Below, in pieces: positions 6,031-13,486 of a stretch of DNA of 25,498 bases. Source of the DNA: a virus (taxonomy: Duplodnaviria; Caudoviricetes); IMG/VR virus record IMGVR_UViG_3300022178_003741, positions 1 through 25,498 of that record. One strand, written 5' to 3'. Each line of letters starts with the position of its first letter. Within the stretch, counting starts at the first letter, position 1. Position numbers and translations under genes: made by a program. The notes beneath the pieces are model-generated. The model had not been told where the DNA came from and did no database searches. It worked only from the letters and a program-made list of their open reading frames with translations.

Positions 6031-6976
6031 TTGGAAATCAGAGGCAATATCTCTCGCTCTTACAACAACATTAAGTTGGAGAGCCATAGCTAAGAAGCTT
6101 AATAAGAGTAAGTCAACAGTGAGTGATTTACTACGTAAGGCTGCTAAGGATGACTACCTACAAACACCATCTAAGAAGGAAGATCAACCCAATATACTGC
6201 TATTTGATATTGAAACATCAATGATACAGGCTTACATTTGGGGGTTATGGAATCAAAACATTGGTATTAGCAGTATTATTAAAGACTGGTATGTTATCTG
6301 CTGGAGTGCAAGGTGGTTAGGTACAGAGAAGATGATACACGACTCCATTCATCTACATGGTAAGAAACTCCCGTACTCCGACTACGAAGAACAAGTGGTT
6401 CGCTCACTATGGATGTTGTTAGATGCAGCGGATATTGTTATAGCCTTCAATGGCAAGAAGTTCGATAAGAAGAAAATGAATGCTAAGTTCTTTGAGTACG
6501 AATTGTTAGAACCTACTCCTTACAAAATCATTGACCCAATGTTGATTGTGAAGGGGAACTTCGCATTAACAAGTAATAAGATGGACTTCGTAGTACGCTA
6601 TGTGAAGGATAATGATGAAGGTAAGTCTTCCACTAACATAGCTTTATGGCATAAGTGTATGAATAATGATGTAGCTTCCTTAGATTACATGCTAGATTAT
6701 TGCGACCAAGACATAGAAGTGTTAGAGAAGGTGTATAGGGCAGTAAGACATTGGGATAAGAATAGTCCCAATCTTGCTTTACATTACAAAGATGATAAGC
6801 CTCGCTGTAATGGATGTGGTTCAACTCAACTTAGGAAGTTGGAGAATAAGACTACACACACAACATTGAGTACTTTCTCTGTATTCAGATGTGATGGGTG
6901 TGGTAAGGTGCTGAGAGATAGAACAAGTCTCCTATCTAAAGAGAAGCGTAGTACATTATTAATGAATAGTAATTAG
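6017..6976 (+). CDS. RNase H-fold DEDD 3'-5' exonuclease with N-terminal HTH and C-terminal Zn finger
   Basis: HTH SWRAIAKKLNKSKSTVSDLLR; LLFDIETS, IAFNGKKFD, LDYCDQD; CNGC...CDGC; ATG6017 follows SD AGGGG. Confidence 0.88.
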   Translation: MRITNWKSEAISLALTTTLSWRAIAKKLNKSKSTVSDLLRKAAKDDYLQTPSKKEDQPNILLFDIETSMIQAYIWGLWNQNIGISSIIKDWYVICWSARWLGTEKMIHDSIHLHGKKLPYSDYEEQVVRSLWMLLDAADIVIAFNGKKFDKKKMNAKFFEYELLEPTPYKIIDPMLIVKGNFALTSNKMDFVVRYVKDNDEGKSSTNIALWHKCMNNDVASLDYMLDYCDQDIEVLEKVYRAVRHWDKNSPNLALHYKDDKPRCNGCGSTQLRKLENKTTHTTLSTFSVFRCDGCGKVLRDRTSLLSKEKRSTLLMNSN

Positions 6977-6985
6977 GGGTAAGAA

Positions 6986-7357
6986 ATGAAATTTGTATTA
7001 TGCAGTGAACAGACATACCAAGAAAAGTACCAAATAGAAGCTCATCAATGGATAAAGATAGTTGACCACGTAGACCTCTTAGGCTTTAAAAACATCCATG
7101 TGACTATCCACGACTGCTGGATGTATGAGATAAGTGATGACAGAGTAGATTTCTTAGAACAACAACTTCTAGCTTTAGCTGATTTTGGGTACATTACACT
7201 CACGTACCTAGACTCAGAGGGTTGGTCAGAGAACTACGTGTACCAGAGACAAGACCCTTTAGCTGAACAAGAAGATTTATTTGCAACACCTCCTAGTGGC
7301 GTCGTAGCTTATGAAGAGAGTGATGATGATTGTGAAGGTGGAGCATGTAAAATATGA
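6986..7357 (+). CDS. Acidic 123-aa protein with a C-terminal NrdA-type redox tail (CEGGACKI)
   Basis: Ends ...EQEDLFATPPSGVVAYEESDDDCEGGACKI; E. coli NrdA ends ...DDGCESGACKI; no RNR catalytic motifs in the rest; SD AGGGG upstream. Confidence 0.8.
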   Translation: MKFVLCSEQTYQEKYQIEAHQWIKIVDHVDLLGFKNIHVTIHDCWMYEISDDRVDFLEQQLLALADFGYITLTYLDSEGWSENYVYQRQDPLAEQEDLFATPPSGVVAYEESDDDCEGGACKI

Positions 7358-7554: not shown

Positions 7555-8039
7555 TTAACTTCAAACAATTTAAAGACTACGTAGTAGTACCCACCTTACG
7601 GCACTTAGAGAATGAAATACATTATAGCGATGAAGCTGTCGACCTCCTCATGATGACTGCTGCACATGAGAGTAAAGGTGGGAAGTACCTCAGACAGGTA
7701 GGTGTACCTGATGGAGTAGGGGCTTATGGTGTCTACCAAATGGAACTAGGTACGTCTGCTGATATCTGGGCTAACTTCCTAGATTATAGGAGCTTAGGCG
7801 TAGTCATTGATGGTCTAGTAAGTAGTCTGAAAGGGGAGAGTTTAATTACTAACCTATCTTATGCTACAGCTATGGCAAGAACACATTACTACAGAGTGCC
7901 ACAGGCTATACCAACAAAGAGTGATAGCGGTTACTTAGATAAGCTTGGTAGGTATGCTAAGAAGTATTATAATACACCTCTCGGTAAAGCAACTGCGAGT
8001 AAGTACGTGACAGATTATCTTGAGTGGAGGGATAGTTAA
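7551..8039 (+). CDS. Lysozyme-superfamily (lytic transglycosylase-like) protein, candidate endolysin
   Basis: Helix-ending E-S (LLMMTAAHESKGG) then GAYGVYQM, resembling SLT motifs I and II; WKKYYNT-like AKKYYNT near the C-terminus; SD GGAGG. Confidence 0.6.
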   Translation: MINFKQFKDYVVVPTLRHLENEIHYSDEAVDLLMMTAAHESKGGKYLRQVGVPDGVGAYGVYQMELGTSADIWANFLDYRSLGVVIDGLVSSLKGESLITNLSYATAMARTHYYRVPQAIPTKSDSGYLDKLGRYAKKYYNTPLGKATASKYVTDYLEWRDS

Positions 8040-8695
8040 TGAAAGGTATTGAAGTTCAACTTGTAGATAGTATGGGAGGTGATTTATCTATTTCTAACTC
8101 AGCCCGTGTGTCCTTTGATAAGTGGAAGGAGACTATGGATGAGAAGGATGCTAAGTTAATAAATTACTTAGGTGAACACCAGCACATGACACCTTTCAGG
8201 CACAACTGTGTACAAGTAAGATGTGAGTCTCCAATCTTCTTAGCAAGACAGCTTATGAAGCATCAAGCAGGTCTTACATGGAACGAAGTAAGTAGACGAT
8301 ATGTGGATGATGGTATTGAGATCTTTCACCCAGAGGATTGGAGAGCGAGACCTGATAAGAATATTAAGCAAGGTAGTGGAGGTGACGTTGTAAAGTGGGT
8401 AGATAAAACGACGAGTGTAAGAACAGCTTACTTAAAAGTTATCAATCAAGCAGTAGAAACTTACATGCAGATGATTGAGGCAGGGGTTGCTCCAGAGTTG
8501 GCTCGTATAGTACTTCCACAAAGTATGTTGACAAGCTGGATATGGACAGGTAACTTACTTGCATTCGCTCACGTATATAACTTGCGAATTAAAGAGAATT
8601 CTCAGTTAGAAGCACAAGTCTTTGCTGAGAAGTTAGGAAACATAATCAAAAAACAATTCCCAGTAGGTTGGGAAGCATTGACAGGAGATAAATAA
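8039..8695 (+). CDS. thyX: Flavin-dependent thymidylate synthase ThyX
   Basis: N-terminal SARVSF, H.TPFRH, PIFLARQLMKHQ...WNEVSRRY signature, GVAPELARIVLPQS, R...SQLE. Confidence 0.95.
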   Translation: MKGIEVQLVDSMGGDLSISNSARVSFDKWKETMDEKDAKLINYLGEHQHMTPFRHNCVQVRCESPIFLARQLMKHQAGLTWNEVSRRYVDDGIEIFHPEDWRARPDKNIKQGSGGDVVKWVDKTTSVRTAYLKVINQAVETYMQMIEAGVAPELARIVLPQSMLTSWIWTGNLLAFAHVYNLRIKENSQLEAQVFAEKLGNIIKKQFPVGWEALTGDK

Positions 8696-9467: not shown

Positions 9468-9662
9468 TTAAATCCTTTTGTTAAGAATTGTAGTAAAAGA
9501 GGATGCTATTAATAACAACTCATCATCTAGATTATCCTTAAACACTATTCTAGAACCACCTGATGGTACATCTACTACATCCGTAATAGATAGCAGACCT
9601 CTAACTGCAATCTCTAATGTATCACCTAGCAGACCATCTGTAGCTATCTTAAACGGGTTCAT
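9468..9662 (-). CDS. Small protein of the tail-appendage cluster (64 aa)
   Basis: ATGA overlap with the upstream gene; internal repeat IATDGLL/IAVRGLL. Confidence 0.65.
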   Translation of the reverse strand: MNPFKIATDGLLGDTLEIAVRGLLSITDVVDVPSGGSRIVFKDNLDDELLLIASSFTTILNKRI

Positions 9663-10222
9663 TGACGTGTTACTGTTGTTGTATTAAGACCATCCCCTGT
9701 CAAGGCTTGAACAATGCTCCCTACTGACCTTTGCGTTTGTGTAACTGTTAAGGGATTAGAATCATCAAGTCCTTGCAATTTATGCAGTTCATCTACTAAT
9801 GAGTTCATTGTACTTAGTATCTGAGACTCCCCAGATGTTAGTCCTGATACTCCTGTCTCTACTACCACTGCGCGAGTAGATACTTCCTGTCTTATAAATG
9901 CATCAAACCCCCCACTCTCTATAAACATGGGTGATAAGGAGTTACGAGGGAATAAGTTACCTACTACAATAACCTCCCCATTGGCAGAAGGTGCTTTTAT
10001 TCTCCACCCTAGATCATTCCTACAGAAGAAGTATGGGGCTATCTGTTGCCCACCCCCTATGTCATCCCCACCCGTTGTCTCAAAGGCTATGGGGTACTTC
10101 GCATTATCATTTAGCAGCACCCACTCCTTCCATGCACTATATAATTCAGATTCAACATAATACGTACCTGTAGTCGGCAATTGTATTAGAAGTGTGTCTC
10201 CATCAAATGTAGCTACTGCCAT
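9659..10222 (-). CDS. Putative virion structural/tail-appendage protein (187 aa)
   Basis: TAATG-coupled; ELYSAWKEW motif shared with its neighbours; Thr/Gly-rich C-terminus. Confidence 0.65.
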   Translation of the reverse strand: MAVATFDGDTLLIQLPTTGTYYVESELYSAWKEWVLLNDNAKYPIAFETTGGDDIGGGQQIAPYFFCRNDLGWRIKAPSANGEVIVVGNLFPRNSLSPMFIESGGFDAFIRQEVSTRAVVVETGVSGLTSGESQILSTMNSLVDELHKLQGLDDSNPLTVTQTQRSVGSIVQALTGDGLNTTTVTRQ

Positions 10223-12132
10223 TATTCATTCCTGTAATTTCTATCGAACCGTTGCTGAATAGGTATTGACTGGTTTTCTGAGGCATAAGTTAGATTGATT
10301 TTCAAATTTTCGTAATCTTGTGCCGCAACAACAATATATCCATCATTACCCGCTTCAGTTTGACTAAACGTAAATAACGTTCCACTATTTTCAACACCAT
10401 CAATTTCTACCGCTGTAGCGGGGTTTGTGCCAACGTATGCGCGTACTTCTGAGTTTGGCTGTAGGTTGGTAAGCGTAATGGTGACAGGTGGAGCTACTGT
10501 ACCGTTAGTATCTGTTCTAACACCGTTGAATACACCACCGTCTGTTAGGCTTATCGTGCCTGTAGTAGTTGCATCACCAGTGTAAGTTGCTCCGTTTACG
10601 ACCATATCCCAATCATCAAAATTAAACGAATTACCTGTGCGTATTAAGTCTTCACCGTACGTCATGTTAGCTGTCTGCGTTAATTGATACTGGTAGTAAT
10701 CATAAAGACTTTGCGCGTTGTGATTAGAGGTTATCGTGACTGTTTCAGTAGCAAAGTTAAGAGAAATCCCAGTAATCGCTGCCGCTTGTGCCTCGTTAGA
10801 TACGAGATTGGTATTCACTGGCAGCCTGACTTCCTGTCTAATAGGTTCACTAACTGCACTTTGAAAACCTGAGTAGATATAACCATACTTTCTAATTCGT
10901 ATGTCAAAGGGGGTTTTGTTTGATGAAGGTGCTCTGTCTTGATACTTGTTAAAAATAGTTACAATTTCGCTAACTGCACCGCTTGAACTTGTGCGTATAG
11001 CATCTTGTATAGTCCCATCTGTATCATATATAGCTACCTTTACTCCTGACAGACCTGTACCACCTGCATTCGCCAGAGTGTAGTTGACGCTTTTGGCCTG
11101 AAATACATAACCGCTTCCGCTGTCTGTGATGTCTGCATCTGTAAAAGTAGTGCAGTCAACCAGAGTTGCGCCACCTGAACTTTGACTTTGCAGAAAAACT
11201 ACAGTGTTAAGAGAGTCTAAATCAAAGACAGTATCCCGGAACACACCTGTATAAGTGAGATGAGTCTTAAATGCCGCTAACCCATTGGCAAACTGAACAT
11301 TAGATACGTCTCTTCCAAAGGTTGCACGTATCGACCAAGCAGGTGTTAAATTAGTGTTACCTCTGAATTTAGTATCTACCAACTCACTAGCAGAATGATA
11401 AAAAGCCCCACCTATTGGCCCATCCCATATCGAACCAATCATTCTTACTGGCCCAGTACCTCTCATAAAAGCCCAGCTTCCCGCTGAGATTGTGTAGTTT
11501 TTAATGTAACAACCGTAAAAATTAAAGACGGGGCCGTTAGCTACTTCCGAACCGCCATTGCCAAAGACGTTTGAGCCAAATGAAGTCCTAGCGTTATCTA
11601 ATGAGATATAGCAACCTTGCCTTGTGATTGTCGAACCGTTAGCTTCACCACCTGTTAATCTTCCAAACTGCACAGCGCAGCCGTTTGCGGCTTGCCAAGA
11701 CGATAACGCGCTTTGGTTTTTCGTGTCTATCGAAACATCTACATCTGCTAAGAAACCACTACCAGTCACACTCCAATCTCTTCCGTTAAACGAGTAAGAT
11801 TTACCTGCAACCGTACAAGCCGTTGTTGCCGCTTCAATATCAGCAAGGTTTGTGCTTATAGTAAAAGAAGCACCTGACGGTGGTGAGCTTTTAAACCCCC
11901 CATCGCCCACGGTTATTGTTGAAGATGTAGCACTTTCAATGTACCTAATTTCCCACGTTGCAGTTAAAGAAGGGTTGACCTTCCACAACAGAAAGCGCCC
12001 TGCATCACCAGAAGTAGGAGCGTTGCCAGAGGCATATTGAATAACGGTTGTTGAGCTACCTGAACCGCTAACAAAAGCCTTGTAAGCTCCGCTGACAGTA
12101 ATACGAGTTGAGCTTGATGTAATAGTAGCCAT
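10222..12132 (-). CDS. Putative tail spike/fibre (receptor-binding) protein (636 aa)
   Basis: S/T/G/N-rich and beta-rich, with a possible beta-helix centre and Ig/prealbumin-like C-terminal segments (GLSGVKVAIYD, ITLTNLQPNSEVRAY). Confidence 0.65.
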   Translation of the reverse strand: MATITSSSTRITVSGAYKAFVSGSGSSTTVIQYASGNAPTSGDAGRFLLWKVNPSLTATWEIRYIESATSSTITVGDGGFKSSPPSGASFTISTNLADIEAATTACTVAGKSYSFNGRDWSVTGSGFLADVDVSIDTKNQSALSSWQAANGCAVQFGRLTGGEANGSTITRQGCYISLDNARTSFGSNVFGNGGSEVANGPVFNFYGCYIKNYTISAGSWAFMRGTGPVRMIGSIWDGPIGGAFYHSASELVDTKFRGNTNLTPAWSIRATFGRDVSNVQFANGLAAFKTHLTYTGVFRDTVFDLDSLNTVVFLQSQSSGGATLVDCTTFTDADITDSGSGYVFQAKSVNYTLANAGGTGLSGVKVAIYDTDGTIQDAIRTSSSGAVSEIVTIFNKYQDRAPSSNKTPFDIRIRKYGYIYSGFQSAVSEPIRQEVRLPVNTNLVSNEAQAAAITGISLNFATETVTITSNHNAQSLYDYYQYQLTQTANMTYGEDLIRTGNSFNFDDWDMVVNGATYTGDATTTGTISLTDGGVFNGVRTDTNGTVAPPVTITLTNLQPNSEVRAYVGTNPATAVEIDGVENSGTLFTFSQTEAGNDGYIVVAAQDYENLKINLTYASENQSIPIQQRFDRNYRNE

Positions 12133-12142
12133 TATCTATCTC

Positions 12143-13486
12143 TTATGCTGGATTAGTATAGTTACGTTCAAGAGGTGCAACTAGCGAGAAGTTCAACCCA
12201 ACCGCTCGTGTTATCGTACCTGTTGCAACAACGTATTGTGCAGAGTTCAAGCCAATAGCTACAATAGTAACATCAGCATCGGTTGCGGCTGTCCTGCCGC
12301 CTTGTACATTACCATCGTAATCGAAATCAAAACTAATACTTTGAGAGCCAGAGATAGCACCTGAAATATCAACAGCACTATTATTATCTACCAAAATAGC
12401 ACTTGAAGTACCAAAATTTCCAGAGGGATTAGTAGTATAAAACATACGGTAAATCGCACTAGCGTCGCTTTGAAGGTTGGCATTAAAAGATATACTCCCT
12501 GCTGCTACGAATGGGAATGTACGACCTACGCCAGTATCATCTGTAAACGTTATTCTGTTGGTATCATTACTATTGAAGTTATCAATGTAAACACCACCAG
12601 TAGATGTTAATATTGTTTCTAGGTTATCCCCTACAAATTGTAACATAGACTCAGCTAGAAGCCCATTATCACTGCCTGCACCATCATCAATGTCTACATT
12701 TTGGCGTAGTTGGTATTGGACATACTGATATATCTGTTCAGCAGTGGCATTGTTACCATCTATAACTATTGAGTAGTTATACGGAGTACCTCCAATGCTA
12801 CGAGCTACAGCACCATAAGTAATACTCATCCCTGTATACGGAGCTAATGTACTGATATCACCATCAGAAGTTGTAATCTTTAAGTCATTACTTTCTGATA
12901 ACGGGAATCGGTAAGCAATATAAGACAAATCAGATACACCGATGTCGGTAGTAGTCTGTGAGCCGTATAGCTTACCCTGTGTACGAATGTATAGAGTTAA
13001 GGTCTCTGCTCGATAATCAAAATTACCATTACTAGCATCACCGAAAGTTTGAACCCCTTGGTTAATAACACCAGCAAAAGCGAAGTCAGTTTTAGTAGAC
13101 TGAGATGAAAAAGCATAATGAGCCGTATCAGAAGCGTCAATGTCACCAAGGGATATGACCCCCATATATTCCCTGTTAACTGCACTACCTGCATCTATCT
13201 CTCTCCAACCAGCAGAACGTACAAGGTTACGACTTGTATCATCTACTAGAACCCAACCCTCTACGAATTCGTATTGCTCTGGCGTGATTGCCACCATTGG
13301 GAAATCAAAGGGTATCTTAGTATCATCGGTACGCCATTCTTCTTTTAAGAACGAATACAACGCTTGCCCTGTAACACCATCGTTAGATAGATTACCTGCT
13401 ACTGCGAGTGTAATAGTCAAAGCAGTAGTATTAATTACTATTTCTATGCCTTGGTTTAGGTTATCTGGGTCTGTAATAAGTGCCAT
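12143..13486 (-). CDS. Putative virion structural/tail-appendage protein (447 aa)
   Basis: Acidic, T/S/D/G-rich beta protein; QALYSFLKEEW and EQIYQYVQYQL motifs; C-terminal ERNYTN. Confidence 0.7.
   Translation of the reverse strand: MALITDPDNLNQGIEIVINTTALTITLAVAGNLSNDGVTGQALYSFLKEEWRTDDTKIPFDFPMVAITPEQYEFVEGWVLVDDTSRNLVRSAGWREIDAGSAVNREYMGVISLGDIDASDTAHYAFSSQSTKTDFAFAGVINQGVQTFGDASNGNFDYRAETLTLYIRTQGKLYGSQTTTDIGVSDLSYIAYRFPLSESNDLKITTSDGDISTLAPYTGMSITYGAVARSIGGTPYNYSIVIDGNNATAEQIYQYVQYQLRQNVDIDDGAGSDNGLLAESMLQFVGDNLETILTSTGGVYIDNFNSNDTNRITFTDDTGVGRTFPFVAAGSISFNANLQSDASAIYRMFYTTNPSGNFGTSSAILVDNNSAVDISGAISGSQSISFDFDYDGNVQGGRTAATDADVTIVAIGLNSAQYVVATGTITRAVGLNFSLVAPLERNYTNPA

Follow-up and report, generated by a model that had tools for sequence, protein, structure and literature searches.

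In class Ia ribonucleotide reductase (RNR) the alpha subunit ends in a redox tail, which carries C754 and C759 in E. coli NrdA and passes electrons from thioredoxin or glutaredoxin to the active-site cysteines. The phage protein studied here, P0001, ends in the same manner, as both have an acidic flexible linker, a CxxxxC pair and a C-terminus two residues after the second cysteine. P0001 differs from class Ia RNR alpha in being a separate 123-aa phage protein which has no catalytic barrel and is encoded in genomes without RNR genes. A tail carried by a separate protein in RNR-less genomes could act only in trans. Whole RNR genes are a known means by which phages raise dNTP supply. These phage RNRs (nrdAB, nrdJ), which are auxiliary metabolic genes, share with P0001 the presumed purpose of dNTP supply, whereas the P0001 gene spans 0.37 kb, does not encode a whole enzyme and provides no radical chemistry of its own. 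In yeast, the tail step can be served or blocked from another polypeptide, as in the case of Sml1 and of the inter-subunit action of the R1 C-terminal tail, which was reportedly described by Zhang et al. in 2007. These systems are eukaryotic. Stand-alone tail peptides of phages possess the same tail as P0001, and their carriers are also RNR-less and often place them near nucleotide-metabolism genes. They differ in being mostly acidic peptides of 39-62 aa, many with an NrdB-tail-like motif, while P0001 combines a folded domain with a clamp-like motif. The β-clamp clients (Pol III alpha and epsilon, Pol IV, Pol V and Hda) resemble P0001 in having Q-x-x-[LM]-[FL] or Q-x-x-[LM]-x-[FL] (PMC11139829) within an acidic and possibly disordered linker. 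Unlike them, P0001 is not a DNA-acting enzyme, has Glu at position 2, shows the motif in a part of its family and is a putative clamp binder. Detached RNR tails or a protein combining the tail with a clamp motif were not described in the literature covered by our search, outside which most subscription papers fall. By its sequence, P0001 appears to be a non-member of the NrdA family which carries an NrdA-tail-like part, and this kind of system was not found in print within that coverage.

The window, which is the whole stretch of 25,498 nucleotides analysed, represents a virus record about 59% complete. Its plus strand encodes a family A polymerase, an exonuclease, an HNH nuclease and ThyX, and the virion genes are on the minus strand. 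The P0001 gene is located in the plus strand block with the following features.

6975..6979, plus strand: Shine-Dalgarno-like AGGGG, seen in the sequence 6 nt 5' of the ATG and overlapping the stop of the upstream (phrog_403) gene
6986..7357, plus strand: P0001 gene of 123 aa (domain, linker and NrdA-type redox tail), with 15 synonymous and 4 non-synonymous codon changes relative to L129
6986..7240, plus strand: N-terminal α/β domain of ~85 aa, modelled by AF2, which stands alone in versions of 78-107 aa in other phage-like proteins
7268..7282, plus strand: QEDLF (aa 95-99), a β-clamp-binding-like pentamer of relaxed form, with non-canonical Glu at position 2 where relatives have a canonical residue
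7301..7357, plus strand: NrdA-type C-terminal redox tail, composed of VVAYE, an acidic spacer, C116-x4-C121 and a free C-terminus two residues past C121
7354..7554, plus strand: 66-aa ORF translationally coupled to P0001, not conserved beside homologues
8039..8695, plus strand: thyX (PF02511, E=1e-40), at the nucleotide-metabolism end of the replication block, three genes downstream of P0001

The translation of 6986-7357(+) ends in ...SDDDCEGGACKI-stop. The tail cysteine codons are at 7331 (C116) and 7346 (C121), giving the order C116-x4-C121-K-I-stop. A preliminary description of this DNA had reported a 123-aa ORF with an NrdA-like two-cysteine end, a Shine-Dalgarno element, coupling to the next gene and thyX nearby. 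The translation, the two codons, the AGGGG element, the overlap of the P0001 stop with the next start (ATGA) and the place of thyX all agree with it. As the 66-aa downstream ORF is not conserved next to P0001 homologues, it is probably outside the P0001 system. The codon changes between P0001 and L129 mark the gene, as judged from sequence comparison, as one under purifying selection. Contigs of two RNA libraries partly cover it at a depth of 2-3, which does not by itself establish transcription, and a promoter scan stayed at chance level (12 vs 11.8). Successive searches enlarged the set of P0001-related proteins from 23 to 41 and then 63, with 33 representatives at 50% identity. The ORF is a genuine gene of a Zobellviridae-like podophage, conserved yet accessory, and its product is organized in three modules, the ~85-aa α/β domain, a linker with QEDLF and the NrdA CxxxxC tail. 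One relative with 90% identity to P0001, P0002, has in place of the tail a stretch similar to the beginning of the exonuclease gene and is likely an assembly chimera.

The tail is the part of P0001 which relates it to NrdA. The C-terminus of E. coli NrdA in the K-12 record reads ...IQDDGCESGACKI, and 9 of the last 13 residues are identical in P0001. The match of the family profile to NrdA covers nothing beyond this 13-residue end (hhalign P=70%, E=4e-5). Of the 45 members of the close, tail-seeded family, 44 retain both cysteines together with the terminal G-[AS]-C-x-[IL], down to ~30% identity, and the same holds for 14 tailed members found later. This 45-member set left out P0002, which has no tail, and the tailed P0023 and P0024 with short starts, and L143 was a false match. 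Conservation of the cysteine pair in homologues, which had been suggested earlier as a check of function, is thus borne out. The spacing in the close family is CxxxxC in 40 proteins and CxxxC in four. The linker diverges in both length (about 24 to 41 residues) and sequence, and in conservation the tail is second only to the domain. P0001 therefore has the C-terminal CxxxxC on an acidic flexible linker which is typical of class Ia RNR alpha, and it has no PF02867/PF00317 barrel, as it is only 123 aa long and gave no Pfam match. Residues 105-123 are predicted to be disordered (AF2 pLDDT<50), which supports the flexible acidic linker noted before; the linker is not featureless, as it holds QEDLF at aa 95-99, which had been missed.

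The N-terminal region was predicted by AF2, using 35 sequences, to fold as a small α/β domain over aa 1-85, with pLDDT of 82-88 per block for aa 1-80. Pfam and PDB sequence searches with P0001 gave no match, and weak Pfam matches of distant family members were below the cut-off. The domain model gave nothing at E<=1e-3 in Foldseek against PDB. In a VIA-wide fold search the best Z was 5.1 with a poor model and 5.6 with a better one, the latter a tie among TIR, receiver and P-loop domains at rmsd 3.1-3.2 over 79-87 residues. These modelled matches seem to reflect only a common α/β arrangement. The BFVD search returned one unnamed protein at 39% identity and weak matches to phage hypotheticals of 75-93 aa, and the ESM Atlas matches (clusters labelled radical-SAM) were all <0.9 and were disregarded. 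No catalytic fold or motif was recognised in the Foldseek PDB and VIA searches. The absence of CxxC in aa 1-90 and of any Pfam or PHROG redoxin match sets the domain apart from the thioredoxin/glutaredoxin fold. The absence of a Pfam match and of any alignment to the NrdA C-terminal profile agrees with the earlier statement that the N-terminus shows no recognisable RNR motif.

The domain is also found without the tail. Among the newly found homologues 13 of 27 are tail-less, and the tail is present in just 8 of 31 domain representatives (P0098 and P0099, long and weak, were left out of this set), which indicates that the tail is a graft. The preliminary description had already spoken of a grafted RNR tail, and a body unlike NrdA with a majority of tail-less versions is what a graft predicts. 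In L285 the corresponding locus encodes a tail-less homologue of 95 aa (hhalign P=95%, E=4e-8). It lies directly upstream of, and overlaps, a glutaredoxin-like gene (L285:5368-5900). In the tree, tailed and tail-less forms are intermixed and weakly resolved. This sequence pattern suggests that the tail was repeatedly gained or lost on the domain, in trees whose few columns and many open forks do not fix the number and direction of the changes. Of the 35 aligned members, 32 have C6, located where strand 1 ends, and many of the tail-less homologues have it too.

A decayed nrdA fragment was considered as the origin of the whole ORF. When the body was compared with 155 NrdA C-terminal pieces from which the tails were removed, the profile-profile score was 12.4, and 36 of 150 column shuffles reached this value. 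A score within the shuffle range argues that the body is not derived from NrdA, and the alignment of the N-terminus with the C-terminal region of NrdA, named before as the finding that would overturn the graft, was therefore not obtained. By eye, aa 57-74 look like the last helix and strand of NrdA. The domain is predicted to fold alone (AF2), occurs without the tail and is under apparent purifying selection, so that a decayed fragment or a chance look-alike is extremely improbable and already largely refuted.

The tail together with a stop was searched as a pattern in IMG/VR, of which 57 of 64 parts were scanned. It matched 119 loci, comprising 85 NrdA and 34 non-NrdA loci. All 119 viral matches end in a true stop though the pattern allowed TGG too, which is more than chance would give. 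Of the 34 non-NrdA loci, 31 encode phage proteins, one is a copy of the P0001 gene and two stand for chromosomal peptides of the Neisseria type. Most of these phage proteins are acidic peptides of 39-62 aa from jumbo phages and from 40-50-kb relatives of the phage studied here, and the others are fusions of ~80 and 263 aa. The tail on P0001 is one among many on unrelated phage proteins, a point which the preliminary description had missed. Other unrelated domains bearing the tail were seen in L038 and L061 (263-aa ORF, which retains an NrdB-like motif too), in L011/L021 (61 aa) and in L010 (~80 aa). Four PHROG families have the tail (phrog_14561, 24014, 38753 and 20277). Cultured jumbo phages (SPN3US, Erwinia phages and CR5) encode tail-only peptides of 47-62 aa, with 65 Erwinia/Salmonella records, and two of the loci are given below.

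L128:2908-3096: SPN3US_0234, tail-only peptide, five genes from thymidylate synthase
L001:3974-4117: tail-only peptide of a cultured jumbo phage

The genes for tail peptides, including pEaSNUABM30_00036, are annotated as hypothetical in the phages. Upstream of the tail, 12 of 28 stand-alone peptides have the motif [LF]xx[FL]x[LFIV], which resembles the NrdB C-terminus, against 2.7 expected, and 29 of 49 NrdB ends fit the same motif. Its presence in the stand-alone peptides suggests that the tail module is aimed at NrdA itself. In the P0001 family the motif was found in none of 40 linkers. In a related RNR-less phage, an ORF at L355:7781-8104 terminates with an acidic linker followed by a tail variant that has CxxC, and its true start is probably internal.

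In bacterial genomes (9 of 64 parts scanned) 112 of 120 matches to the tail pattern were NrdA. Neisseria chromosomes (L147:2601-2729(-), L157, L218, L221 and L045) encode a 42-aa stand-alone tail peptide between iscS and iscU. In four Neisseria genomes this peptide coexists with an NrdA which retains its own two-cysteine tail. In Psychrosphaera (L172) nrdA seems to be broken by frameshifts in the assembly, leaving the tail in a separate frame of 23 codons, which is probably a sequencing error.

RNR genes were then sought in the carriers. PF02867, PF00268, PF13597 and class II RNR gave no match in the window, which holds ~59% of the genome. PF02867 was absent from all 36 carrier records (L088 left out of the count) and from all 20 virus records at least 90% complete, and the lack of nrdA in carriers, proposed earlier as a check, was hence observed. 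NrdB was found in none of 27 records, 26 being carriers, and NrdD in none of five. The class II RNR protein matched only the two positive controls among 28 records (26 carriers), and no RNR was found in SPN3US and SNUABM_30. A tail-less nrdA elsewhere in the carrier, as a split gene would have it, was not detected by PF02867 in G001 (100% complete) or G044 (92%). Among 25 related near-complete phages, chosen by neighbouring genes, nine have RNR and no known tail carrier is among these nine. In the small relatives RNR was found in none of seven tail carriers versus 9 of 21 others (one-sided p=0.043), the genomes being non-independent and the non-carrier labels uncertain because the genome search for tails was insensitive and missed the known peptide of G025. 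Avoidance of RNR by carriers among the small relatives thus appears marginal from the sequence counts.

The linker of P0001 holds a motif similar to those which bind the β-clamp. The review PMC11139829 gives two clamp motifs, Q-aliphatic-x-[LM]-[FL] and Q-aliphatic-x-[LM]-x-[FL], and describes their position 2 as tolerant. When any residue is allowed at this position, 22 of 45 linkers contain the motif against 1.1 expected from shuffling, and 8 of 45 have the strict form against 0.3. Of 14 tailed members which turned up once the test had been set, 11 have it (0.15 expected), 10 in strict form (0.05 expected). The motif counts, early and late, rest on related sequences; 10 of the 11 later matches are from one subclade and two are near-copies of earlier sequences. 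Pentamers (QEDLF, QVEMF, QMDMF, QGDMF) and hexamers (QLDLPL, QSEMVL, QSEMAF) alternate at the same place. The background in window proteins is four matches per 8170 residues. Tail-less representatives show the motif near their end in 3 of 21 cases against 0.37 expected. It is missing from about half of the tailed members and from all three further tailed representatives; one large tailed subgroup is without it and shows a predicted helix-like segment. QEDLF is outside the folded domain (pLDDT ~54), within a low-confidence helix modelled at aa 91-99. Q-x-[DE]-L is found in 37 of 69 bacterial NrdA linkers, and the QEDLF of P0001 may, to judge by this resemblance, be partly descended from the NrdA linker. 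No clamp gene was found in three carrier phage genomes, so any clamp partner would be that of the host. Real binding to the β-clamp seems somewhat more probable than not.

The preliminary description had offered three roles, the re-reduction of host NrdA in trans, the baiting of host thioredoxin or glutaredoxin, and electron delivery to another phage enzyme, and the distribution favours the first. The retained cysteine pair, the unrelated carriers, the avoidance of RNR genes and the NrdB-like dock in the sister peptides together suggest that the tail most likely acts on host NrdA. We tentatively propose, with somewhat less than even confidence, that P0001 is a stimulatory in-trans redox shuttle for host NrdA which is probably clamp-docked in the P0001 subfamily. 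The tail would take electrons from host thioredoxin or glutaredoxin and would re-reduce the active site of the host class Ia RNR in trans, presumably giving more dNTPs, while P0001 is presumably docked on the host β-clamp, with a possible coupling of the two. What favours a stimulatory effect is that the carriers rely on the RNR of the host and retain the cysteine pair. The P0001 family has no NrdB-like docking motif and no obvious NrdA anchor, which speaks against the shuttle. Moreover, the rate-limiting step of the enzyme is a conformational one preceding radical transfer, as stated in PMC11903788, so an extra tail need not increase flux. The Neisseria peptide in the isc operon beside a fully tailed NrdA also allows non-RNR roles. 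A wider proposal, that P0001 is an adaptor bridging the host sliding clamp and the recharging of host RNR for dNTP regeneration at forks, as one of a convergent class of detached tails replacing viral nrdAB, is doubtful.

If the shuttle is true, a portable redox tail of ~20 residues on unrelated proteins of RNR-less phages would be a different phage strategy, plugging into the recharging of the host enzyme. With P0001 and its 123 aa, or with a synthetic peptide, two old questions become accessible to experiment, namely if the alpha tail of bacterial class Ia RNR is able to function entirely in trans and if flux in vivo is limited by re-reduction. A working clamp motif would give a natural physical link from RNR to the replisome, and P0001, should it be inhibitory, would offer a natural lead for targeting a bacterial enzyme which is essential. 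The cultured jumbo phages with tail-only peptides (SPN3US etc.) are a ready genetic system.

The tail is a native substrate of thioredoxin and glutaredoxin, and it could be a mere bait or handle for the host redoxins, for example for a T7-like polymerase or against a redoxin-dependent defence, with NrdA uninvolved. The missing NrdB-like motif in the P0001 family and the glutaredoxin-like gene directly downstream of tail-less L285 fit such a use. The phage has a family A polymerase, and an insert in it, judged by eye against the T7 layout, is presumably like the thioredoxin-binding loop of T7. We regard this bait as unlikely, as it leaves unexplained the RNR avoidance of carriers, the NrdB-like motif of the sister peptides and the retention of the exact NrdA terminus, and at 16 other carrier loci no gene for a redoxin was detected by a crude motif screen. 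A further reading is a service of the tail to its own N-terminal domain or another phage enzyme, where it would recycle a reactive cysteine such as C6. The wide conservation of C6 and the glutaredoxin neighbour of one tail-less homologue agree with it. Several members with a tail have lost C6 (P0040, P0044, P0045, P0048 and P0076), many tail carriers are peptides of 39-62 aa without any domain and no catalytic fold or motif was recognised, and this recycling is accordingly quite improbable.

P0001 might also act against the host, the tail serving as a competitive decoy for the NrdA active site and the motif blocking the β-clamp, so that host replication is stalled and dNTP pools are reshaped, possibly evading dNTP-sensing defences. 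The logic of the decoy is that of Sml1. The clamp-like motif is enriched, and according to PMC11903788 the alpha tail and the beta tail require one common entrance to the active site. Clover, a dTTP-sensing defence, is escaped by phage nrdA/nrdB mutants according to PMC12265719. A pure blocker would not require both cysteines at fixed spacing, the carriers have no RNR of their own as a fallback, and the phage thyX suggests that de novo flux is wanted. Host shut-off is on these grounds a distinctly unlikely role, and the stimulatory shuttle for host NrdA is retained as the preferred reading.

The best polymerase matches of the window are from Vibrio phages at ~42% identity, and one such record is classed in Zobellviridae. 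The last eight residues of P0001 equal the NrdA end of Pseudoalteromonas, Shewanella, Thalassotalea, Oleispira, Moritella and Rheinheimera. A gammaproteobacterial host, hinted at before from the tail, fits both the NrdA ends and the polymerase matches, which do not amount to proof. The P0001 homologues share one block, 3' of a phrog_403 or phosphoesterase-like gene and 5' of a phrog_3108 gene. In six close relatives (L345-L349 and L352), with a phrog_3108 gene 83-85% identical, the gene is missing at the locus, and no P0001-type gene was found genome-wide in G040 (94% complete). All these very close relatives are also without RNR, which indicates that P0001 is dispensable.

The slot upstream of P0001 (window:5927-6976) is occupied by the phrog_403 protein with RNase H-like, HTH and Zn-ribbon parts, or in close relatives by a phosphoesterase-like protein of ~274 aa. 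The 162-aa phrog_3108 product (window:7551-8039) is conserved, contains an invariant HES motif and gave no Pfam match; its appearance is transglycosylase-like by eye alone. thyX is gained and lost among close relatives. The region 9659-13486 on the minus strand, which varies among relatives, has three probable tail-region genes (187, 636 and 447 aa) with no Pfam/PHROG match above noise. A strong terminator-like hairpin is present at window:9013-9041, where the replication and virion gene blocks converge.
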